From a virus (lineage: Duplodnaviria; Heunggongvirae; Uroviricota; Caudoviricetes), in the IMG/VR virus record IMGVR_UViG_2698536476_000007: DNA of 26,878 nt; one strand, given 5' to 3'. The notes beneath the pieces are model-generated. The model was not told the DNA's origin and searched no databases. It worked only from the letters and a program-made list of their open reading frames with translations. A program made the translations under genes and the position numbers. Of this stretch, positions 2,494 through 10,348 are shown piece after piece; within the stretch, counting starts at the first letter, position 1; the number at the start of each line of letters is the position of its first letter.

Positions 2494-2850
2494 ATGCGTG
2501 ATATGTATGAAGTAATGGATCGTTGGGGAGCTTGGGCTGCTTCAGACAATAGCGGAGTGGACTGGCAGCCGATAGCGGCTGGTTTCAAGGGACTTTTACC
2601 TCATGGCAAAAAGTCACGGATTCAGTGTGATGATGACGAAGGCATCATGATAGACAGTTGTGTGGCTCGGTTGAGAAGGTATAAACCAGAGGAATATGAG
2701 CTCATCATCGCCCACTTTGTTATCGGTATCTCATTACGCACTATTGCGAAGAAGAGAAAATGCTCTGATGGCACAATTAGGAAGGAACTGCAAACTGCAA
2801 TGGGGTTTGTTGACGGCTGTTTAGCAATGTTAGCTTATAGTATGGCATAA
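2494..2850 (+). CDS. Q: Late-gene antitermination protein Q (phage 82/21-type)
   Basis: 'VMDRWGAWAA...WQPIAAGFKGLLP...SRIQCDDDEG' matches the 82-type Q family (LERWGAWAA...IAAGFKGL...CCDDD). Sits immediately upstream of the lysis cassette. GGAG at 2483-2486 precedes ATG 2494. Confidence 0.75.
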   Translation: MRDMYEVMDRWGAWAASDNSGVDWQPIAAGFKGLLPHGKKSRIQCDDDEGIMIDSCVARLRRYKPEEYELIIAHFVIGISLRTIAKKRKCSDGTIRKELQTAMGFVDGCLAMLAYSMA

Positions 2851-4044
2851 AAAATAAAATAGATTTACTGCCGATTTTTCAAAAAAGACTGGGAACTGTT
2901 TATATCCAACGTAAATAAGGCCTCCATAAAACATGGCTGATGCGAGATATTTAACAGTTCTCATCCTTTTTTTAGCTTTATCAATCAAACCTGTAATGCT
3001 ACTCTTAATACTATCTGCATTATCTTTGATTTCTTTATTTTCTTCAAACTTTAAATACTTATCGAAAGCGGACTCCACTCGAGAACGTAAGTTGTCGAAT
3101 GTTTCATTGAATATCTCAATAGAAATGTAATTGACTTTTTTTATCATCCAAAGTCCTGCGATAATCAATATTGCTTCGGTTGTTTCATTAGCCTTCACTA
3201 AGCCACCAGCAGCTATTAATGCACCGGGAATAGTCAATGCTTTTGTCTGATTAGATGATATGAATTCGTTAATTTTACTCGTGAACTCAAGATTTTTCTC
3301 ATCGAGTTCGTTAAGAATTTTATTTACAGAAAACCTCTTTGTGTAAATCTCATATAGTTCATCATATTTTTTCCTGACGAGTTCAGTAGAGTTAAGCAAG
3401 TCAAAGAAATTGAACGTACCATTTGCTTTAAATACTTCGTTTATGGCTGAGCGTATAACGAGCTTGCGCTCGCTTTTGTGTAAATCATTGATTTTTATTG
3501 TGTCGAGAAGCTCCTTTATAATTTCATATTTAAGAGACGAGTTCGATAAGCGATTAATCTCGCTATATTGTAAAAAATGCGTGAGTTCGACTGTATAACT
3601 TTTGTCTTCATTGGTGAAAAATAAGACAGAGCAGTCACTGTTATGATGATCAGCAATTAATGAAAGGATATCTTTCCACATAAAGAAAATATGGATTTTT
3701 TCGATGCTTTCATTCTTAGAAGTAGGGAGTATTAACGGCGTTCCGATGATATAATTTTTCGGAAGAGCGTTTTGGGTGTTTACTCTAGACCAAAAAGACT
3801 CAACATTCTCATAAATTATAGCGTCATCCCAAGATGAAGCTTGGCGATCTAGCCAAATTTCATTATTTTCGATGCAGGTTGTTGCCTTTTTATAACCTAT
3901 AGATTGTAACAGTCTAATTATTTCAGAACTATTTACAATAACAATGCTTTCTTCAAGACTTATGACAGTGTAGTAGCCCTCAACTCTGCTTGAGGCTCCG
4001 TTAATAATCTGCGCTAATCTTGATAAGTCATCAGCAATTGTCAT
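2830..4044 (-). CDS. Hypothetical protein, 404 aa; soluble N-domain plus C-terminal hydrophobic helices; downstream gene of the AT-rich cargo operon (candidate effector)
   Basis: Uninterrupted 1.2 kb ORF in very AT-rich DNA, where long ORFs are unlikely by chance. Start ATG lies 2 nt after the upstream gene's TAA (translational coupling). Hydrophobic stretches LTIPGALIAAGGLV, AILIIAGLWMI and YLASAMFYGGLIYVGY near the C-terminus. No family recognised. Confidence 0.8.
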   Translation of the reverse strand: MTIADDLSRLAQIINGASSRVEGYYTVISLEESIVIVNSSEIIRLLQSIGYKKATTCIENNEIWLDRQASSWDDAIIYENVESFWSRVNTQNALPKNYIIGTPLILPTSKNESIEKIHIFFMWKDILSLIADHHNSDCSVLFFTNEDKSYTVELTHFLQYSEINRLSNSSLKYEIIKELLDTIKINDLHKSERKLVIRSAINEVFKANGTFNFFDLLNSTELVRKKYDELYEIYTKRFSVNKILNELDEKNLEFTSKINEFISSNQTKALTIPGALIAAGGLVKANETTEAILIIAGLWMIKKVNYISIEIFNETFDNLRSRVESAFDKYLKFEENKEIKDNADSIKSSITGLIDKAKKRMRTVKYLASAMFYGGLIYVGYKQFPVFFEKSAVNLFYFLCHTIS

Positions 4045-4046
4045 TA

Positions 4047-5222
4047 TTAGCTGTCTCTATATCTTTTGAGTTCATCATAATTTGCCTGACTCAATTTTAT
4101 CACAATTTCGCATTTGTTGTCAGTGAGAATTACAGGCTTATTTGACTTTTCGTCTCCAATAGCTCCACGCATTATTTTCAACTTAAAATTATTGTCGTTA
4201 TCTGCCACTTCAATTGTAAGCGCGCTTTCAGCTGCTTTAGGAGTTGGTTCAAATTGAGGGTCAATCTGGAAACCATTAAGATTAACAAAATCGACAAACG
4301 TTCCCTTACATTTGTGTGAATCAGTCAGGCATGAGTCAATTATTTTTGAAATATCCTCTATCTTAACGGACTTATTTCCGTGTTTATCTTTTGATTTTTT
4401 TTCCAGTAAGGATTTAACTTCATTGTCAATAGTATCACGCAGTACACGACCGAGTGAGTTTTTACTAGCAAAAATATCTATAGCACTGAATAATTGCTGA
4501 ATGCTTCTTTTATTGTCCGAATCATGTCGGCAACCTAATGAGTCTTTGAAAAAATCGCTTTTAGATTTACCTTGCAAGAAATGTACATATGAGTCACCCT
4601 TGTTTTCTGGATAACTGGCTTCGAATAAAGTTAAATCGAACATCGCAGCCTGCCGTAAGGCATCGGTATTAATTGGATTTAATCTTGTTGGGGTCAACTT
4701 ATCCGAATCAAAGTCATAGGCGCTTTGTTTATCAACCATTACGATTAGAAGTTTCCCCAAATCCTCTGGTTCGGTAGACTTATAGTGGATGAAAACAACG
4801 CTCCCCCCCTGAAGTTGGGCAACTCTCGATTCGTTATTAGCATTATGTTTAAGCTTCTCTATTATAGCTCTAGATAAATCAATGAATTCATTATTTTTAT
4901 TAATGTATTTTTTTAGGATCGTAGGAATGGATGAAGGGTTGTGATCTGAGTCTAGGAAGTTATGAAATTTGTTTTTTCGGCTAAATTTTTTCTCAATTCT
5001 GGTTATGAATTCAGATGTGACTTCATTTTTTAGATCCCAAACTTCACCTAATCGATAATCAAATGCTCTTGAATCATTTTTTTCAAGATTTGCTGTTACA
5101 GCACCAATAGGAAAGTACGATTGTTTGCCCAGCACTACAACATGAGGCGTGGCACCGCATTTATCGCAAGCTACAGTTGGGTCGTCAAGAACATTGCCAC
5201 ATTCTAAACAAGTTATATCCAT
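4047..5222 (-). CDS. Hypothetical protein, 391 aa; N-terminal CxxC-x10-CxxC zinc ribbon plus NdpA/YejK-like region; upstream gene of the cargo operon (candidate sensor/DNA binder)
   Basis: Long ORF in AT-rich DNA. N-terminus CLECGNVLDDPTVACDKCG. Central 'GGSVVFIHY...LLIVMV...NPINTDALRQAAMFDLTLFE...YVHFLQGKSKSDFF' parallels the NdpA motif series GGFVLFCHY...LLVAVL...DLTEWE...YLTFLKGRVGRKVADFF, as recalled from memory. Confidence 0.8.
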   Translation of the reverse strand: MDITCLECGNVLDDPTVACDKCGATPHVVVLGKQSYFPIGAVTANLEKNDSRAFDYRLGEVWDLKNEVTSEFITRIEKKFSRKNKFHNFLDSDHNPSSIPTILKKYINKNNEFIDLSRAIIEKLKHNANNESRVAQLQGGSVVFIHYKSTEPEDLGKLLIVMVDKQSAYDFDSDKLTPTRLNPINTDALRQAAMFDLTLFEASYPENKGDSYVHFLQGKSKSDFFKDSLGCRHDSDNKRSIQQLFSAIDIFASKNSLGRVLRDTIDNEVKSLLEKKSKDKHGNKSVKIEDISKIIDSCLTDSHKCKGTFVDFVNLNGFQIDPQFEPTPKAAESALTIEVADNDNNFKLKIMRGAIGDEKSNKPVILTDNKCEIVIKLSQANYDELKRYRDS

Positions 5223-5513: not shown

Positions 5514-5840
5514 ATGCCTCATAACCCAAATACTTGGCTGGAGTTGGTCCAGAGCTGGTGGCGTGGAGACACACCGCTGGGCGCAGTGATTATGTCGATC
5601 GTTATGGCTGGCTTGCGCATTGCCTATTTTGGCGGTGGTGGTGGCTGGAAGAGAAAAACGCTCGAGATTTTGCTCTGTGGCGCTCTGACGCTGACCTTTG
5701 CATCCGCGCTTGAGTATGTCGGATGGCCTAAATCGCTTTCTGTTGCCATTGGTGGTGGCGTTGGGTTGATCGGTGTCGATGCTATTCGTGGGGCTGCAAT
5801 GAGAGTAATCGGTAACAAGTTTGGTGGCTCTAAGGAGTAA
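5514..5840 (+). CDS. S: Holin (lambda S-like, class I)
   Basis: 108 aa with hydrophobic helices; 'GAVIMSIVMAGLRIAYFGGGGGWKRKTLEILLCGALTL' resembles lambda S. Directly upstream of the R endolysin. Confidence 0.85.
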   Translation: MPHNPNTWLELVQSWWRGDTPLGAVIMSIVMAGLRIAYFGGGGGWKRKTLEILLCGALTLTFASALEYVGWPKSLSVAIGGGVGLIGVDAIRGAAMRVIGNKFGGSKE

Positions 5841-5843
5841 TTT

Positions 5844-6320
5844 ATGCAGGTACTAAATTCCCAGCGTAAAGCTTTCCTGGATATGGTGGCATGGTCAGAA
5901 GGAACGGATAACGGGCGACAACCGACACGTAACCACGGTTATGACGTTATTGTCGGTGGCGAACTCTTCACTGATTACTCCGATCACCCTCGCAAACTTG
6001 TCACGCTAAACCCGAAACTCAAATCAACAGCTGCAGGCCGTTATCAACTTCTTTCACGTTGGTGGGATGCTTACCGCAAGCAGCTTGGGCTGAAAGACTT
6101 CTCTCCCAGAAGCCAGGACTCAGTGGCATTACAGCAGATTAAAGAGCGTGGCGCTTTACCGATGATTGACCGCGGCGATATTCGTCAGGCAATCGACCGT
6201 TGCAGCAATATCTGGGCTTCACTGCCGGGCGCTGGTTATGGTCAGTTCGAGCATAAGGCTGACAGCCTGATTGCAAAATTCAAAGAAGCGGGCGGAACGG
6301 TCAGAGAGATTGAGGTATGA
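5844..6320 (+). CDS. R: Endolysin, lytic transglycosylase (lambda R)
   Basis: 158 aa, near-identical to lambda R across its length ([79 protein letters not shown]...). Confidence 0.95.
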
Positions 6321-6754
6321 GCAGAGTCACCGCGATTATCTCCGCTCTGGTTATCTGCATCATCGTCTGCCTGTCATGGGCTGTTAATCATTACCGTGAT
6401 AACGCCATGACCTACAAAGAGCAGCGCGATAAAGCCGCATCCATCATCGCTGATATGCAGAAGCGTCAACGTGATGTAGCAGAACTCGACGCCAGATACA
6501 CAAAGGAGCTTGCTGATGCTAACGCGACTATCGAAAGTCTCCGTGCTGATGTTTCTGCTGGTCGTAAGCGCCTGCAAGTCGCCGCCACCTGTGCAAAGTC
6601 AACGACCGGAGCCAGCAGCATGGGCGATGGAGAAAGCCCAAGACTTACAGCAGATGCTGAACTCAATTATTACCGTCTCAGAAGTGGAATCAACAGGATA
6701 ACCGCGCAGGTTAACTACCTGCAGGAATACATCAGGACGCAATGCCTGAAATGA
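6317..6754 (+). CDS. Rz: i-spanin Rz
   Basis: N-terminus [30 protein letters not shown] is essentially identical to lambda Rz; C-terminus 'QCLK'. Confidence 0.9.
6516..6701 (+). CDS. Rz1: o-spanin Rz1 (lipoprotein), embedded in the +1 frame of Rz
   Basis: AAGGAG RBS at 6503-6508 precedes ATG 6516. Signal peptide [20 protein letters not shown] with lipobox Cys, then a proline-rich stretch ([13 protein letters not shown]) as in lambda Rz1. Confidence 0.75.
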
Positions 6755-6789
6755 TCGGGCGATGAAAACCAAAAAAACAGGAGCAATAC

Positions 6790-7065
6790 ATGACTAAGCT
6801 TTATCACCGCATCTCAGCTTTTCTCTCTGGGTGCTGGGCGTTTATCACGTCTATTTCGTTCGTCATCTTTAGTTTCGGTAGCACAGCATGCTCGCTTAGT
6901 CGGGGTCTGTGGCGTGCTATTTCAGCACTAGCGCCGAAATTTTTACCTGAAAAGGTTGTTTGGCGAATTGTAGAGCGAATGTGTAGTGAGAGCGTTCGCG
7001 AGAAGATTAACGTATTTGGACGTCATCCTCGAAATACAGGCGCATTGTGCAGTTCGTTACTGTAG
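6790..7065 (+). CDS. Hypothetical small protein with hydrophobic N-terminal region (moron position downstream of Rz)
   Basis: CAGGAG RBS 8 nt upstream of the ATG; hydrophobic segment AFITSISFVIFSF; followed by a hairpin at 7074-7100. No family recognised. Confidence 0.4.
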   Translation: MTKLYHRISAFLSGCWAFITSISFVIFSFGSTACSLSRGLWRAISALAPKFLPEKVVWRIVERMCSESVREKINVFGRHPRNTGALCSSLL

Positions 7066-7073
7066 TCATTACA

Positions 7074-7100
7074 AAGCCCATCTTTGGGTTTGGTTTGTAA
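7074..7100 (+). terminator. Hairpin with trailing T-rich tract (possible weak terminator) downstream of the 6790-7065 ORF
   Basis: AAGCCCA-tctt-TGGGTTT stem (one G-T wobble) followed by GGTTTGTAATTT. Confidence 0.3.
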
Positions 7101-7183
7101 TTTCGCTGCTGCAATAATCACCAGAAATATGGCATTGTAATTGGTGGTCATATGTCATACCCATCAATTACAAAGGAGCAGAC

Positions 7184-7435
7184 ATGTCATCTACAAAATT
7201 AGTTAAAACTATCCTTTTCCATGGAGATAATAAATATGAAGTTTATGCAACCTCCGAGTACGCTGACGTAGATAGAATCATTCATTACAAGTTACGCTCA
7301 TGTAAAAACACAGATGGTTCAGATGGCAAGTCTGAATCTATATGGGTTGTATATAATCCTGCTGTTCAACTACCGGATGATCTGAACTACAAAAAAGTTA
7401 GCAACATAGCTCCTTATCTTGAAAAGTTACAATAA
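7184..7435 (+). CDS. Hypothetical 83-aa protein; AT-rich moron with its own RBS and terminator
   Basis: AGGAG RBS 6 nt upstream of the ATG; AT-rich codon usage unlike flanking phage genes; intrinsic terminator immediately downstream. No family recognised. Confidence 0.55.
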   Translation: MSSTKLVKTILFHGDNKYEVYATSEYADVDRIIHYKLRSCKNTDGSDGKSESIWVVYNPAVQLPDDLNYKKVSNIAPYLEKLQ

Positions 7436-7457
7436 ACTTCCTTTTCCACATGCTAAA

Positions 7458-7483
7458 AGCCTCGTATTCGCGGGGCTTTTTAT
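7458..7483 (+). terminator. Intrinsic terminator after the 7184-7435 moron
   Basis: GCCTCG-tattcg-CGGGGC stem (one G-T wobble) followed by TTTTTATT. Confidence 0.55.
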
Positions 7484-7493
7484 TGTCATTACA

Positions 7494-7519
7494 AAAGCCA
7501 CTCCCTACAGAGTGGCTTT
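7494..7519. terminator. Perfect 10-bp hairpin (AAGCCACTC-cctaca-GAGTGGCTT); possible opposite-strand or bidirectional terminator partner
   Basis: Perfect inverted repeat; on the - strand the stem is followed by TTTTGTAATG. Confidence 0.3.
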
Positions 7520-7647
7520 GATAATGGTTTATACCCTACACGGGATAACTTAACTGATATCCCTTTTAACGGATAAACGGAGCCAACAATGGCAGAGAAT
7601 GTCGGCATTATGGCAGTTAAATTTGGATAAATCGGAGATTAGTACAT

Positions 7648-7998
7648 ATGCCGCCACGAATCCCGAAAGCCTGCCGTGCTCGAGGTTGCCGTAATACCAC
7701 CACTGACCCGTCAGGCTATTGCGAAAGCCACAAAAGCGAAGGCTGGAAGCAATACAAACCTGGACAATCCCGTCATCAGCGCGGCTACGGTTCGAAGTGG
7801 GACAGTATCCGCGCGCGTGTCCTGAAGCGTGACAAAGGCCTGTGTCAGTTATGTCTGCGTTCTGGTGTGGTGCGTGAGGCGAAAACTGTTGACCACATCA
7901 TCCCTAAAGCGCATGGCGGCACTGATGCTGACAGTAATCTGCAGAGTCTGTGCTGGCCGTGTCATAAGGCGAAGACGGCCCGTGAACGGTTAAAGTGA
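7648..7998 (+). CDS. HNH endonuclease (packaging-associated, upstream of terminase)
   Basis: Cys pairs (CRARGC...C) plus 'VDHIIPKAHGGTDADSNLQSLCWPCHKAK' is the HNH motif; classic HNH-cos-TerS-TerL arrangement of HK97-like phages. Confidence 0.85.
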   Translation: MPPRIPKACRARGCRNTTTDPSGYCESHKSEGWKQYKPGQSRHQRGYGSKWDSIRARVLKRDKGLCQLCLRSGVVREAKTVDHIIPKAHGGTDADSNLQSLCWPCHKAKTARERLK

Positions 7999-8018
7999 TA
8001 ATAATTCTCAACTGTCTG

Positions 8019-8086
8019 AGGGGAGGGGCGGGTCAAATCCCTGTGACCTGACGTCTTCCGGACTGCCCGCCCCATCGTTTTTTTAT
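8019..8086. other. Candidate cos/packaging-initiation region (GC-rich inverted repeat GGGGCGGG...CCCGCCCC followed by a T7 run)
   Basis: Located in the HNH-to-terminase-small intergenic gap where HK97-like phages carry cos. 8-bp perfect inverted repeat separated by 33 bp, then ATCGTTTTTTTAT. Confidence 0.3.
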
Positions 8087-8123
8087 ACCCGCGAAAAATG
8101 AAATTTAACCAGGAGTGCCGCAT

Positions 8124-8618
8124 ATGGCTGGAACGGCGGGGCGTTCCGGGCGTCGCCCCAAGCCAACGGCGCGCAAGGCGCTGGCCGGAAACCCCGGCAA
8201 GCGAGCCCTGAATAAAGATGAACCTGTTTTTACGCCCATCAAAGGTGTTGAGCCACCGGAGTGGTTCGCAGAAGAAAATCTCCCTCTCGCCACGATCATG
8301 TGGCAACTGACAACCAAAGAACTCTGCGGTCAGGGCCTGTTGTGCGTGACTGACCTCGCGGTGCTTGAGCGGTGGTGCGTGGCCTATGAGTTCTGGCGAC
8401 GTGCCGTGAAAAATATTGCCATACAGGGCAACACCATCACCGGTGCAATGGGCGGCAGGGTCAAAAATCCGGAGCTGACCGCCAAAAAAGAACAGGAGTC
8501 CGAGATGAGCAGCACGGGGGCAATGCTCGGACTCGACCCCAGCAGCCGCCAGCGTCTGATTGGCCTGGCGGGGCAGAAGAAAGCCACTAACCCGTTTCTG
8601 AAAATCATCGAGTCATGA
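8124..8618 (+). CDS. Terminase small subunit (P27 family-like)
   Basis: AGGAG RBS at 8111-8115 precedes ATG 8124; basic N-terminus and position immediately upstream of, and overlapping, the large terminase subunit. Confidence 0.8.
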
Positions 8619-10348
8619 GCCGGAAATCTTACCCCAACGTAAATGCTGCCAATCAGTATGCCCGTGATGTTGTGCGCGGAAAGATTGTGGCCTGCCAGTT
8701 TGTGATTCAGGCCTGCCAGCGCCATCTTGATGACCTGATGGCGGAAAAAAGTAAGTCGTTTCGTTACCGCTTCGACAAGGACCTGGCTGAACGGGCCGCC
8801 AAATTTATTCAGCTGTTGCCGCACACCAAGGGTGAGTGGGCATTCAAGAGGATGCCCATCACGCTGGAGCCGTGGCAGCTATTTGTGGTCTGCTGTGCGT
8901 TTGGCTGGGTCAATAAAGGGTCCCGGCTGCGCCGCTTCCGGGAGGTGTATACCGAAATCCCCCGTAAGAACGGCAAATCGGCAATCTCTGCCGGTGTTGC
9001 CCTGTATTGTTTTGCCTGTGATAACGAGTTTGGCGCGGAAGTGTATTCCGGTGCCACGACAGAGAAACAGGCGTGGGAAGTCTTTCGCCCGGCGCGACTG
9101 ATGTGTAAACGCACACCCATGCTGACGGAAGCGTTCGGGATTGAGGTTAACGCCTCAAACATTAATCGTCCGGAGGATGGCGCGCGGTTTGAACCGCTGA
9201 TCGGTAACCCCGGTGATGGTTCATCACCCCACTGTGCGGTGGTGGATGAATATCACGAGCACGCCACCGATGCGCTTTACACCACGATGCTTACCGGGAT
9301 GGGGGCGCGACGTCAGCCACTGATGTGGGCCATTACTACTGCCGGGTACAACATTGAGGGGCCGTGCTACGACAAGCGACGGGAAGTTATCGAGATGCTC
9401 AACGGGTCGGTACCCAACGATGAACTGTTCGGGATCATCTATACCGTTGACGAAGGCGATGACTGGACCGACCCGCAGGTGCTGGAAAAAGCTAACCCGA
9501 ATATTGGCGTGTCGGTTTATCGCGAATTTTTGTTAAGTCAGCAGCAGCGTGCGAAAAATAACGCCCGTCTGGCAAACGTCTTTAAAACAAAACACCTCAA
9601 TATCTGGGTGTCGGCGCGTTCGGCGTATTTCAACCTGGTGAGCTGGCAGAGCTGCGAGGATAAATCACTGACCCTTGAGCAGTTCGAGGGGCAGCCGTGC
9701 ATTCTGGCCTTTGACCTGGCGCGTAAGCTGGATATGAACAGCATGGCGCGACTTTATACCCGCGAGATTGACGGTAAAACGCATTACTACAGTGTGGCTC
9801 CGCGCTTCTGGGTACCGTATGACACGGTGTACAGCGTCGAGAAAAATGAAGATCGCCGGACAGCCGAACGCTTTCAGAAATGGGTGGAAATGGGCGTTCT
9901 GACCGTTACCGATGGTGCGGAGGTGGATTATCGCTACATCCTCGAGGAGGCCAAAGCGGCGAACAAAATCAGCCCGGTCAGTGAGTCACCCATCGACCCC
10001 TTCGGGGCGACCGGGTTGTCACATGACCTTGCTGATGAAGACCTGAATCCCGTCACTATCATTCAGAACTACACCAACATGTCCGACCCGATGAAAGAGC
10101 TGGAAGCGGCAATTGAATCGGGGCGCTTTCATCATGATGGCAATCCCATCATGACCTGGTGTATCGGCAATGTGGTCGGCAAAACCATTCCGGGTAACGA
10201 TGATGTGGTGAAACCCGTCAAAGAGCAGGCGGAAAACAAAATTGACGGTGCAGTTGCGCTGATTATGGCGGTTGGCAGAGCCATGCTGTACGAGAAAGAA
10301 GACACGCTGTCTGACCACATTGAGTCCTATGGGATCCGCTCGCTTTAA
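8615..10348 (+). CDS. Terminase large subunit
   Basis: 577 aa; size and position (ATGA overlap with the small subunit, followed by portal), with acidic/ATPase-like motifs such as '[11 protein letters not shown]'. Confidence 0.9.

Follow-up and report, generated by a model that had tools for sequence, protein, structure and literature searches.

The direct repeat that flanks a gene for an 83-amino-acid protein in this tailed-phage genome is formed by the left (5') arms of two stem-loops from one conserved family of 36-40-nt elements. We found that the family element keeps its base-paired fold on the plus (late-transcript) strand and that, judging by the sequences on either side, it is a mosaic joint around which left and right flanks have been reassorted. 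We conclude that the stem-loop is probably a recombination joint and an RNA signal.

The flanking repeats are arms of two different stem-loops

The first-pass annotation of this DNA had described a direct repeat, with a hairpin at each copy, on either side of an AT-rich ORF and its terminator. All of these features are present (Table 1). The left repeat, GTCATTACAAAGCC, occupies 7065-7078 and thus starts one base to the left of the position first given (about 7066); its first base, a G, is the final base of the TAG stop codon of the 91-aa ORF. The right repeat, GTCATTACAAAAGCC, occupies 7485-7499, and the repeat search set the spacing at 420 nt. Stable stem-loops were found at both copies, at 7068-7101 and 7486-7527, with the ORF and the terminator between them. 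Throughout the window, which is the whole 26.9-kb stretch analysed (26,878 nt), the 11-mer GTCATTACAAA occurs only at 7065 and 7485, on either strand and even with one mismatch allowed.

Table 1. Features of the repeat locus and its surroundings, in window coordinates.
Feature	Position	Strand	Basis or remark
91-aa ORF, phrog_34701, upstream cassette	6790..7065	+	TAG stop at 7063-7065 overlaps first base of repeat
Hairpin copy 1 (A'), subtype A with altered 3' arm	7065..7102	+	folding, covariance model, comparison with HK140 and cM8a
TGCAATAAT, extended -10-like, putative moron promoter	7110..7118	+	read from sequence; conserved in cM8a
83-aa AT-rich ORF, moron cargo, phrog_16949	7184..7435	+	ORF list, PHROG match
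Moron's own terminator, canonical intrinsic type, AAAAGCCTCGTATTCGCGGGGCTTTT followed by TATTG	7455..7480	+	terminator scan
Hairpin copy 2, intact subtype B	7485..7527	+	inverted-repeat search, folding, covariance model
Conserved leader	7528..7598	+	sequence matches stop at 7598
HNH endonuclease gene	7648..7998	+	start of packaging module, right of variable slot
Terminase small subunit gene	8115-8618	+	packaging module
Terminase large subunit gene	8615-10348	+	packaging module

Copy 2 is an intact member of subtype B. Positions 7486-7503 pair with 7510-7527 (-20.5 kcal/mol, z = -5.6), forming a lower stem CAUUA/UAAUG, an internal loop CA/GA and an upper stem of 10 bp (AAAGCCACUC/GAGUGGCUUU) closed by the loop CCUACA. 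Scored against a covariance model made from other phages, it reached 50.4 bits (E = 6e-13). Copy 1 pairs 7068-7080 with 7085-7101 (-17.2 kcal/mol, z = -4.1), with an outer stem ATTACAAA/TTTGTAAT and an inner stem CCCA/TGGG, and scored 10.1 bits (E = 1.9) against the same model. Its 5' arm, GTCATTACAAAGCCCATCT, is that of subtype A; the 3' arm has been changed to TTGGGTTTGGTTTGTAAT and folds nonetheless. In phage HK140 the same 91-aa ORF is followed by an intact hairpin, and the first 19 nt of copy 1 are identical to those of that hairpin; an intact hairpin A comes after this ORF in two further phage loci as well (L032 and L081). The 91-aa protein had no match in PADLOC or Pfam, and its PHROG has no assigned function. 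The left junction of the 83-aa gene, which we refer to as the moron, falls within the 3' arm of copy 1, and we take copy 1 to be a subtype A hairpin with a 3' arm that was rebuilt at the joint with the moron.

The repeats themselves are identical over 11+3 nt only, and an 11-mer repeated within 500 nt is, taken alone, weak evidence: by our own estimate about three such pairs are expected by chance in a window of ~27 kb, and at least two near-matches to the repeat word appeared in 8 of 100 shuffles. The idea that the pair arose by chance within AT-rich intergenic sequence is nevertheless already refuted, and we regard it as scarcely credible, given the score of copy 2 against the family model, the synteny of copy 1 with the intact copies that share its first 19 nt, and the occurrence of homologous copies by the hundreds at the same genomic position. 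Homology provides the strong evidence for the repeat pair.

Two smaller features were recorded in the same region. The heptamer ATTACAA, considered as a candidate protein site, occurs at 7068, 7094 (minus strand), 7136 (minus strand), 7167 and 7488, and an inverted repeat at 7135-7173, ahead of the 83-aa ORF, has z = -1.7.

The family is maintained as a plus-strand structure

Members of the family have in common a lower stem of 5 bp, the internal loop CA/GA and an upper stem of 9-10 bp, and they fall into three subtypes, A, B and C. All nine upper-stem pairs were formed in 62 of 138 unique matches to the outer-arm pattern, versus 0.13% after shuffling. Across 44 distinct sequences, 96% of the cells were paired and nine of ten upper-stem pairs varied on both sides, a level that none of 500 shuffles reached and that compares with at most 48% in slid registers. 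Sequence is conserved in the outer arms and in the CA/GA loop and the inner stem covaries freely, although the examples with divergent stems came from a pattern with fixed outer arms, such that outer-arm conservation is partly a matter of ascertainment; only subtype C was recovered independently of that pattern. In subtype C the lower stem covaries too (A-U to G-C) and the CA/GA loop is retained. One variant (L009) has its internal loop closed, with TC in place of CA.

The substitutions also distinguish the strands. We counted 91 G·U or U·G wobbles versus five A·C or C·A mismatches, and on the opposite strand the wobbles become mismatches. Tetraloops of the form C(UNCG)G make up 12 of the 48 unique tetraloops. 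The covarying stems, the U·G wobbles on one strand only and the UNCG loops suggest that the conserved object is an RNA structure of the plus strand.

Searches against Rfam release 15 with permissive E-values, over 6300-8200 and 7440-7660, brought no family to its gathering threshold (best scores of 15-22 bits against thresholds of 37-100); the hits were noise of the kind that generic hairpins produce. The isrJ family, on the minus strand, was dropped at 15-18.5 bits against a threshold of 37, with the wobbles favouring the plus strand. A minus-strand terminator was likewise set aside: subtype A would have C·A mismatches there, the model scores 16-20 bits on that strand versus 50-60, and the window holds no leftward gene to the right.

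The hairpin marks an accessory slot between lysis and packaging genes

In enterobacterial temperate phages the family lies in a slot for accessory genes, with the lysis genes for holin, lysozyme and Rz on one side and the packaging genes on the other. A stem-loop was present downstream of Rz in 75 of 80 phage loci that share this Rz gene, with subtypes arranged as AC in 28, C in 13, B in 12, AB in 11, A in 11 and none in 5; many of these loci are closely related, with Rz identities of 94% or more, and the counts are not independent events. Every stem-loop was on the plus, late-transcript strand. Among phage records, 184 carried subtype A and 38 subtype B (32 of the latter nearly full length), and subtype A was found in 1361 of 5426 complete E. 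coli genomes, always as unannotated intergenic DNA. The family also occurs in prophages of other Enterobacterales genera, where 26 of 36 hairpins begin within 7 nt of a stop codon. Weak BLAST matches in Pectobacterium, Vibrio, Lactobacillus and others (E of at least 0.2), and pattern matches beyond the Enterobacterales, lacked the fold and were treated as chance. A literature search with the arm sequences returned unrelated primers only, and one on boundary sequences and on morons and terminators gave context but no account of this element.

The genes next to the hairpin vary. It is found 3' of at least 13 unrelated ORFs or C-termini, often 1-3 nt past the stop codon, and at a further site it lies between a tail-tube gene and a DUF6246 gene. 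The cargo of the hotspot includes KilA-N, Rha, GIY-YIG, Gp49-family and anti-CRISPR-annotated genes together with unknown morons. The last hairpin is invariably followed by the conserved leader. In P22-like phages this leader comprises the region upstream of the hkbM/DUF2560 gene together with the first 9-10 nt of the gene itself, and it contains two small palindromes, TTATACCC-N5-GGGATAA and TATCC-N8-GGATA. In the window, homology to other phages ends where the HNH module starts, at 7598.

We found 21 clusters of left flanks versus 8 of right flanks, with seven four-gamete violations, a pattern that marks the element as a mosaic joint and points to crossovers at the hairpin. Because the right flanks are far less diverse, the hairpin may be a 5' element of the downstream leader rather than of the upstream cargo. 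The first-pass annotation had placed the motif at cassette boundaries and had asked whether related phages show the corresponding indel; both points are borne out. Empty and filled states both exist: one phage locus (L037) has a single hairpin and no cargo, and HK140, L047, L081, L032 and the window have two hairpins enclosing differing cargo.

The repeat was not made by insertion of the 83-aa gene

The moron differs from its surroundings in composition (35-37% GC versus ~52% in the flanks). Its product had no match in Pfam or PADLOC, and its PHROG has no assigned function. Of the 5426 E. coli genomes, 17 carry the gene; it was absent from the phage records, and its DNA occurs at one place per genome. 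Four contexts of the moron or its homologues were found, and in three of them a hairpin A directly precedes it: the window, strain cM8a/L298 and a locus with a 63% homologue (L301).

The annotation had read the repeat as a duplicated or attachment motif created by, or used in, moron insertion. Such an origin, whether as a target-site duplication or as the attachment site of a site-specific or transpositional event, would account for a direct repeat of 11+3 nt bracketing a low-GC ORF and for the existence of single-copy empty sites. It is, however, already contradicted, and we consider it very improbable. Insertion would leave identical repeats, but one copy is of subtype A and the other of subtype B; their stems and loops differ, and they agree in the conserved 5' arm only. 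The single copy at the empty site is a full hairpin, and many phages without the moron carry one or the other subtype. The moron of cM8a is flanked by the left copy alone, with no adjoining copy on the right. The segment encodes one protein, of 83 aa, and no recombinase or transposase, and the moron's single location per genome also speaks against this origin. The flanking repeat in the window should not be taken to mark the 83-aa gene as a mobile element. Of the interpretation first placed on the locus, the boundary position and the indels stand, the origin by insertion falls, and the suggestion of a pair of insulating terminators is half right, as set out below.

The canonical hairpins lack the U-tract of an intrinsic terminator

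Both hairpins are stable, GC-containing stem-loops of at least five pairs in the direction of transcription. The U-tract is missing: copy 2 and the canonical forms of A and B continue with (T)TGATAATG. Our terminator scan, which demands at least five T in the eight positions after the stem, called only two of the hairpins at the locus, the altered copy 1 (at 7074-7091) and the moron's own terminator, leaving copy 2 uncalled. The moron's terminator is strong, lies 5 nt upstream of hairpin B and is of a recurrent GCCTCGC..GCGGGGCTTTTT type, with similar examples in HK75, cM8a, SfI and L300. Upstream of the ORF, TGCAATAAT could, from its sequence, be the moron's own promoter; it is part of the moron and not of the repeated motif. 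A consensus promoter scan yielded nothing credible for the moron or beside the hairpins and did not call TGCAATAAT.

These observations bear on the possibility that the hairpins are ordinary insulating terminators, with the moron expressed independently, their similarity due to common descent and no part played in recombination. The stability and orientation of both hairpins, the terminator-like call for copy 1 and the label 'terminator' that subtype B carries in phage Ayreon are consistent with such a role, as are the unexplained terminators within the late operon reported for the P22-like phage L (PMC8022706). We nonetheless consider it unlikely. The canonical forms of A and B run into GAUAAUG rather than a U-tract. 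Because a strong canonical terminator directly precedes hairpin B, a purely terminating role there would be redundant. In addition, the element has conserved outer arms and a CA/GA loop together with a freely covarying inner stem, of which a plain terminator needs neither, and the reassortment of flanks is concentrated exactly at the element.

Proposed role of the element

We favour a model in which the element is an intercistronic RNA hairpin that doubles as a homology patch for cassette exchange, and we hold this to be somewhat better than an even bet. At the RNA level it would act as an intercistronic 3'-end hairpin. In the lysogen it could serve as a leaky terminator on transcripts that are not antiterminated; on the Q-antiterminated late transcript it could be a barrier that affects stability or processing. 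The upper stem could form alone where transcription stops, with the lower stem and CA/GA loop forming only on read-through.

At the DNA level, the 36-40-bp hairpin, together with the leader of 70 nt next to it, may act as a homology patch for adding, swapping or deleting cassettes. Red-beta has a minimal efficient processing segment (MEPS) of 23-27 bp, and RecA one of 31-34 bp (PMC3945230). Because hairpin and leader are common to otherwise different phages and exceed the Red-beta-type minimum, they could serve in this way. The 83-aa moron, with its promoter-like -10 element and its own strong terminator, may have been installed by such an exchange, with the left crossover within hairpin A and the right one at the junction of the terminator and hairpin B.

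The element might instead act as DNA, as a protein-binding site or as a single-stranded hairpin for a structure-specific recombinase or nuclease that actively moves cassettes, in the manner of integron attC or the ends of IS200/IS605 elements. The conserved outer arms and 2x2 internal loop resemble a recognition feature, strict strand bias and tolerance of G·T would fit one DNA strand too, cargo genes sit right against the element, much like the genes of a cassette array, and iteron-like palindromes adjoin it. On the other hand, no conserved recombinase or HUH gene lies alongside, and the neighbours vary from locus to locus; attC core sites (GTTRRRY) are absent; UNCG tetraloops are an RNA-specific stabiliser; and the same hairpin also occurs amid essential tail genes, a place where mobile cassettes are hardly to be expected. 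We judge a DNA-level role improbable. Equally speculative is a stronger version, in which the hairpin is a dedicated signal whose lower stem and CA/GA loop are read by a specific factor and the junction is an integron-like array that actively captures and exchanges genes. That factor would then be a host or phage RNA-processing enzyme or a structure-specific single-stranded-DNA recombinase or nuclease, and the cargo actively exchanged at the lysis-to-packaging junction would include some anti-CRISPR-annotated genes. The intercistronic hairpin with a second use as a homology patch remains the reading that we prefer.

Comparison with known systems

One close parallel is with the PeSL (promoter-early stem-loop) cassettes of T4-type phages, which combine a strong sigma-70 promoter with a stem-loop for which efficient termination has been shown (Arbiol et al. 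2010, PMC2839356; PMC4122927). Like PeSLs, the hairpins described here are short conserved stem-loop motifs that recur around the variable small ORFs of hyperplastic regions, where non-essential ORFs abound. For both elements, the insertions, deletions and replacements that set related phages apart end at the motifs, which for PeSLs has been attributed to recombination between motifs. Unlike PeSLs, the present element has no U-tract and no promoter (none was called in or beside either hairpin), has a conserved lower stem with a CA/GA internal loop, and occurs in temperate lambdoid, P22-like and HK97-like phages.

A second parallel is with the linker or boundary sequences that reportedly lie at the junctions of lambdoid modules, as in the modular theory of Susskind and Botstein and the 2001 study of HK620 by Clark and colleagues. 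These too are short conserved sequences between unrelated modules, lie at mosaic joints and are proposed crossover points; the present element differs in being a structured, covarying and strand-biased hairpin, beyond a conserved stretch. In the part of the Sf6 record that we examined, the only boundary sequence, bsq7, lies within gene 63 (Rz; L002 1070-1117), and the Sf6 hairpins, at ~1591-1630 and ~2255-2296 of the same locus, coincide with no annotated feature.

The late operon of phages L and P22 contains intrinsic terminators for which partial termination or the blocking of spurious transcription has been proposed (PMC8022706). Like these, our hairpins lie inside a Q/gp23-antiterminated late operon; in contrast, their canonical copies have no U-tract and their outer-arm sequence is conserved across genera. 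In lambda, tI/sib forms a terminator-like upper hairpin that is extended by further pairing only on read-through, creating a possible processing site. The two-tier design of our element is similar by analogy only, with a stem of just ~17-18 bp-equivalents.

Integron attC sites resemble the element in being strand-specific imperfect inverted repeats directly after each cassette ORF, with an inner part that keeps structure over sequence. Here, in contrast, there are no R''/R' core sites, IntI or attI, arrays reach at most 2-3 elements, and the outer arms are conserved in sequence: the hairpin ends read CATTAC...GATAATG, as against RYYYAAC ... GTTRRRY in attC. No integrase adjoins the arrays in the annotated regions examined.

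The origin of phage mosaicism has been debated between conserved linker sequences and random illegitimate joins followed by selection. The element is a clear example, and a widespread one, of a conserved sequence that is short and structured and lies where the parts of an accessory hotspot are joined. The family can be used as a marker for prophage cargo slots and as a testable substrate for cassette exchange by Red, Erf or RecT, and it offers Rfam-type curation a candidate for a new cis-acting RNA motif.

Two copies of a common phage hairpin flank the moron

The window represents an E. coli prophage of the lambdoid, HK97 type; over the 1.8 kb searched (6317-8115), it matches E. coli strain 2015C-3163 with 100% identity. 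The slot between its lysis and packaging genes holds an 83-aa ORF in which GC falls to 35-37% (Table). The first-pass annotation had described a direct repeat on either side of this moron, each copy followed by a stem-loop. We found this description to be accurate, apart from a first coordinate that was off by one base, and both repeats form the 5' arms of hairpins. As that annotation had suggested, we searched for further copies: over both strands of the whole window, the 11-mer GTCATTACAAA occurs only at these two sites.

In relatives, the repeated word is part of a longer imperfect palindrome. A covariance model built from 25 diverse copies describes a lower stem of 5 bp and an upper stem of 9-10 bp, separated by a 2x2 internal loop (CA/GA) and capped by a loop of 4-6 nt. 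Against this model, copy 2 (subtype B) scored 50.4 bits (E = 6e-13) and copy 1 only 10.1 bits (E = 1.9); no other site in the window scored. Given its low score, we regard copy 1 as a degenerate member of the family. Phage HK140 carries the same 91-aa ORF followed by an intact subtype A hairpin, GTCATTACAAAGCCCATCTACGGGTGGGCTTGATAATG; the first 19 nt of copy 1 are identical to this hairpin, and its 3' arm reads TTGGGTTTGGTTTGTAAT where the intact form has ACGGGTGGGCTTGATAATG, with folding retained. Two more of the ATTACAA/TTGTAAT heptamers found in the hairpin arms lie in an inverted repeat of 13 nt (TTGTAATTGGTGG/CCATCAATTACAA) just ahead of the ribosome-binding site used by the 83-aa ORF; the fold of this repeat is not significant (z = -1.7).

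Upstream of the lysis genes, two large leftward ORFs may together form an accessory insert at the Q-to-lysis junction. The 391-aa product matches the NA37/NdpA nucleoid-associated protein family (PF04245, 1e-23), and the 404-aa product had no match in Pfam or PADLOC.

Positions of features in the window and in compared phage or prophage loci
Feature	Position	Remarks
DUF968/HNHc-type gene	1481-2476	
Two leftward ORFs	2830-5222	minus strand
Holin	5514-5840	
Lysozyme	5844-6320	
Rz	6317-6754	
91-aa ORF	6790-7065	upstream of the repeat region
Repeat, copy 1	7065-7078	GTCATTACAAAGCC
Hairpin, copy 1 (A')	7068-7101	-17.2 kcal/mol, z = -4.1
Moron DNA	7102-7484	
Candidate extended -10	7110-7118	TGCAATAAT
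Inverted repeat	7135-7173	
83-aa AT-rich ORF	7184-7435	
Terminator of 83-aa ORF	7455-7480	GCCTCGC type
Repeat, copy 2	7485-7499	GTCATTACAAAAGCC
Hairpin, copy 2 (B)	7486-7527	-20.5 kcal/mol, z = -5.6
hkbM/DUF2560 leader remnant	7528-7598	
Palindrome 1	7529-7548	TTATACCC-N5-GGGATAA
Palindrome 2	7558-7575	TATCC-N8-GGATA
DUF2560/hkbM gene start	7589-7599	ATGGCAGAGA
31-aa orphan ORF	7599-7694	as listed, another frame
HNH endonuclease gene	7648-7998	
Terminase small subunit	8115-8618	
Terminase large subunit	8615-10348	
L051 (HK140), spacer	5788-5945	158 nt, AAACCGGAATTTATTC...GGTGGCGGACTGATGGAAAGACATC
L009, subtype B variant	6171-6210	CATTATCAAAGCC...GGCTTTGATAATG
L287 (phage Huey), two slot genes	680-1836	hairpin after each
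L003, terminator	1471-1499	GCCTCGC type
L004, terminator	~2205-2232	GCCTCGC type
L005, terminators	~170-200, 1855-1885	GCCTCGC type
L300, terminator	~1766-1800	GCCTCGC type

The hairpin family is widespread and lies on one strand

BLAST with the subtype A 38-mer retrieved 184 phage records (P22-like, HK97-like, ES18 and Stx phages), and the subtype B 42-mer (copy 2) retrieved 38, of which 32 matched nearly full length. Of 5426 complete E. coli genomes, 1361 contain subtype A, at 1-4 sites per genome and always in unannotated DNA; phage Sf6 has one copy 3' of gene 65 and another 3' of gene 66. The covariance model revealed a third subtype, C (TATTGCAGAGACCATTCAATGAGTGGTCTCGACAATG). Among 80 IMG/VR loci whose Rz is at least 94% identical to that of the window, 75 carry one or more hairpins in the ~2.9 kb that follow Rz, arranged as A-C (28), C (13), B (12), A-B (11) or A (11); five have none. 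Every match in these loci lies on the late-transcription strand, minus-strand matches being low-scoring shadows of the same palindromes only. One subtype B variant (L009), in which the internal loop is closed, is a perfect palindrome whose strands score equally (34.5 and 33.2 bits).

We also scanned IMG/VR with a pattern in which only the outer arms are fixed (CATTACAAA N16-28 TGATAATG), and one genome per GTDB species with a slightly longer form. Fully paired copies in GTDB are almost all from Enterobacterales (Enterobacter, Leclercia, Kluyvera, Pantoea, Serratia, Xenorhabdus, Morganella, Siccibacter and others), and the few in other MAGs lie on E. coli-phage sequence. Five short MAG contigs labelled Bacillota, Collinsella or Nanosynbacter (L263, L276, L270, L225, L227), with hairpin and flanks identical to E. 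coli lambdoid phages, most likely reflect binning contamination rather than an element outside Enterobacterales.

Covariation favours a plus-strand structure

Among 138 unique pattern matches, the upper stem is paired at 9 of 9 positions in 62 and at 8 of 9 in 11, compared with 9 of 9 in 0.13% of shuffled controls; the distribution is bimodal, setting real copies apart from chance matches. The real copies, of which the divergent ones were retrieved with fixed outer arms and many come from loci related by descent, have at least 26 different upper stems (GCCCATC/GGTGGGC, AGCCACTC/GAGTGGCT, GGGCGGT/ACTGCCC, GGGTGCT/AGTGCCC, GCGTCTC/GGGACGC and TGGTCC/GAGCCA, for example). In 44 distinct model-aligned sequences, 96% of cells are paired and 9 of 10 upper-stem pairs have changed on both sides; none of 500 shuffles reached the observed pairing and covariation values, and pairing falls to 26-48% in slid registers. 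Subtype C, which the covariance model detected and the outer-arm pattern did not, shows compensatory A-U to G-C changes in the lower stem and in the first upper pair, with the CA/GA loop unchanged. Upper stems contain 91 U·G/G·U wobbles versus 5 A·C/C·A mismatches; on the opposite strand, each wobble would become an A·C mismatch. Subtype B runs through the path C-G, U·G, U-A (ACTC/GAGT, ATTC/GAGT, ATTC/GAAT), and C(UNCG)G accounts for 12 of 48 unique tetraloops. Together, the pairing, covariation, one-sided wobbles and UNCG tetraloops favour selection on an RNA, or at least a plus-strand, structure.

The moron probably used pre-existing hairpins

Downstream of the same 91-aa ORF we found at least four states. 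Locus L037 has a single hairpin A and then the leader, with no cargo; L047 and HK140 have A, a 158-nt spacer, C and the leader; L081 has A, the spacer, a small ORF with terminator, B and the leader; L032 has A, a Gp49-family gene, B and the leader; and the window has A', the 83-aa gene with terminator, B and the leader. The empty-site polymorphism for which the first-pass annotation had proposed to compare related prophages is therefore present. Its idea that the duplicated motif was created or used by moron insertion stands only in part: because the flanking copies belong to different subtypes that exist without the moron, insertion did not create them but probably used them. The repeat is ordinary in origin, being two copies of a common phage hairpin. 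The spacer is conserved: it recurs in ~40 Rz-anchored loci between hairpin A and hairpin C or slot-2 cargo, exists in three sequence variants, and contains no convincing ORF.

The moron DNA is present in 17 of 5426 E. coli genomes, 16 copies being in the window's context, and had no match in phage records. Strain cM8a (93% identical), like L298, has it 3' of a different ORF and 5' of a KilA-N gene. The moron's left junction there is again hairpin A, intact through GGGCTTG and followed by TAATTTCG; the right junction falls directly past the moron's own terminator, with no adjoining hairpin. In L301, a 63%-identical homologue directly follows an intact hairpin A (59.6 bits); beyond the homologue come a terminator, TTATTG and then a hairpin of degenerate form, CCATTACAA...GTAATGG. 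L300, with a 71% homologue, has no hairpin on the left side. The cassette or its homologues are thus joined at the 3' edge of hairpin A in three of four contexts. Judged by its sequence, the cassette would comprise a short leader, in which TGCAATAAT is a candidate extended -10 look-alike, the ORF and a GCCTCGC..GCGGGGCTTTTT terminator.

This recurrent terminator type, GCCTCGC-N4-GCGGGGCTTTTT(T)AT, constitutes another class of sequence shared between junctions of the region, besides the hairpin: it closes different cassettes (after Rz, after the 83-aa gene, before HNH in SfI), and in several loci precedes a homologous ~150-nt leader ahead of KilA-N or BRO-N genes.

Hairpins mark gene ends and mosaic joints

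In Rz-anchored loci, at least 13 unrelated ORF C-termini precede the hairpin, including KilA-N and Rha-type genes, Sf6 gene 65 and gene 66 types and the 91-aa ORF, and the hairpin very often starts 2 nt past the stop codon. In the GTDB scan, 26 of 36 copies begin within 7 nt of a same-strand ORF stop. One context recurs outside the lysis region. There, the hairpin lies 1-5 nt past the stop of a tail-tube gene (Phage_tail_2/Big_2, Ig-like domain), and a further 3-14 nt separate it from the ribosome-binding site of a DUF6246 gene; its outer arms are the same throughout, and its inner stem differs from genus to genus (L214, L226, L238, L255, L157, L094; L223, Xenorhabdus; L260, Morganella; L266, Serratia; L286 and L267, Pantoea; L279, Siccibacter). 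In phage Huey, two genes of the slot carry an anti-CRISPR annotation: hairpin A lies 10 nt past the first, and hairpin B overlaps the stop of the second, which appears to be of the Sf6 gene 66/Gp49-family type.

Clustering the flanks of 116 copies separated 21 types on the left but only 8 on the right. In seven cases, a pair of left types has at least two right types in common; these four-gamete violations indicate exchange at or within the element.

Subtypes B and C in 71 of 72 copies, and subtype A sometimes, run directly into GCTTATACCCTACACGGGATAAC... or a closely similar sequence, which in P22-like phages is the leader ahead of hkbM/DUF2560. In the window, the leader runs ten bases into the gene, keeping its start; homology to P22-like phages ends at 7598, where the HNH-terminase module is joined, leaving an orphan ORF. 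Directly 3' of the hairpin are two tandem palindromes of the form TTATCCCC-N4-8-GGGGATAA, also seen in L146, L177, L282, L230, L284, L209, L099 and L172. Their half-sites are conserved across genera while spacers and downstream genes vary. Since half-site variants are uncompensated, the palindromes look like a putative protein-binding DNA site rather than RNA stems. They are reminiscent of the lambda O-protein iterons (ATCCCTC-N5-GAGGGAT).

Proposed role and relation to known elements

Our results show an element, located at gene ends and mosaic joints, whose structure is conserved on the plus strand. As to its molecular function, we infer that it acts as an intercistronic RNA hairpin. The first-pass annotation had also offered a pair of insulating terminators. 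A canonical intrinsic terminator was rejected because the tail is GAUAAUG, copy 2 was not called by the terminator scan, and hairpin B lies directly 3' of a strong terminator. An attC site and a target-site duplication were likewise rejected, as defining features of each were sought and not found. The hairpin would fit better as a terminator that is weak or conditional, or as a barrier affecting stability or processing, and such a role would also agree with the site after the highly expressed tail-tube gene.

In lambda tI/sib, a terminator-like upper hairpin is extended by further pairing only with read-through. By analogy, the two-tier shape suggests similar logic: the upper stem would form by itself where transcription stops, and the lower stem and loop only on read-through. 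Terminators within the late operon of phage L have been noted, their role being unknown (PMC8022706).

Rad52-like phage recombinases drive exchange between short diverged homologies, and minimal efficient pairing segments are 23-27 bp for Red-beta and 31-34 bp for RecA (PMC3945230). The hairpin (36-40 bp) and leader (~70 bp) exceed both lengths and could therefore serve in recombination.

No Rfam 15 family reaches its gathering score for the hairpin, the arm sequences have no phage-context occurrence in the searchable literature, GenBank records leave the element unannotated except for one 'terminator' label in phage Ayreon, and the Sf6 boundary feature bsq7 lies elsewhere. On the basis of these comparisons, we file the hairpin as a previously undescribed family. 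This family proved of greater interest than the original finding suggested: it is widespread, structured, strand-specific and unannotated, and it occupies the joints of an accessory-gene hotspot. We place it among phage regulatory stem-loops that double as recombination linkers; of the concepts already described, the PeSL of T4-type phages comes closest (PMC2839356).
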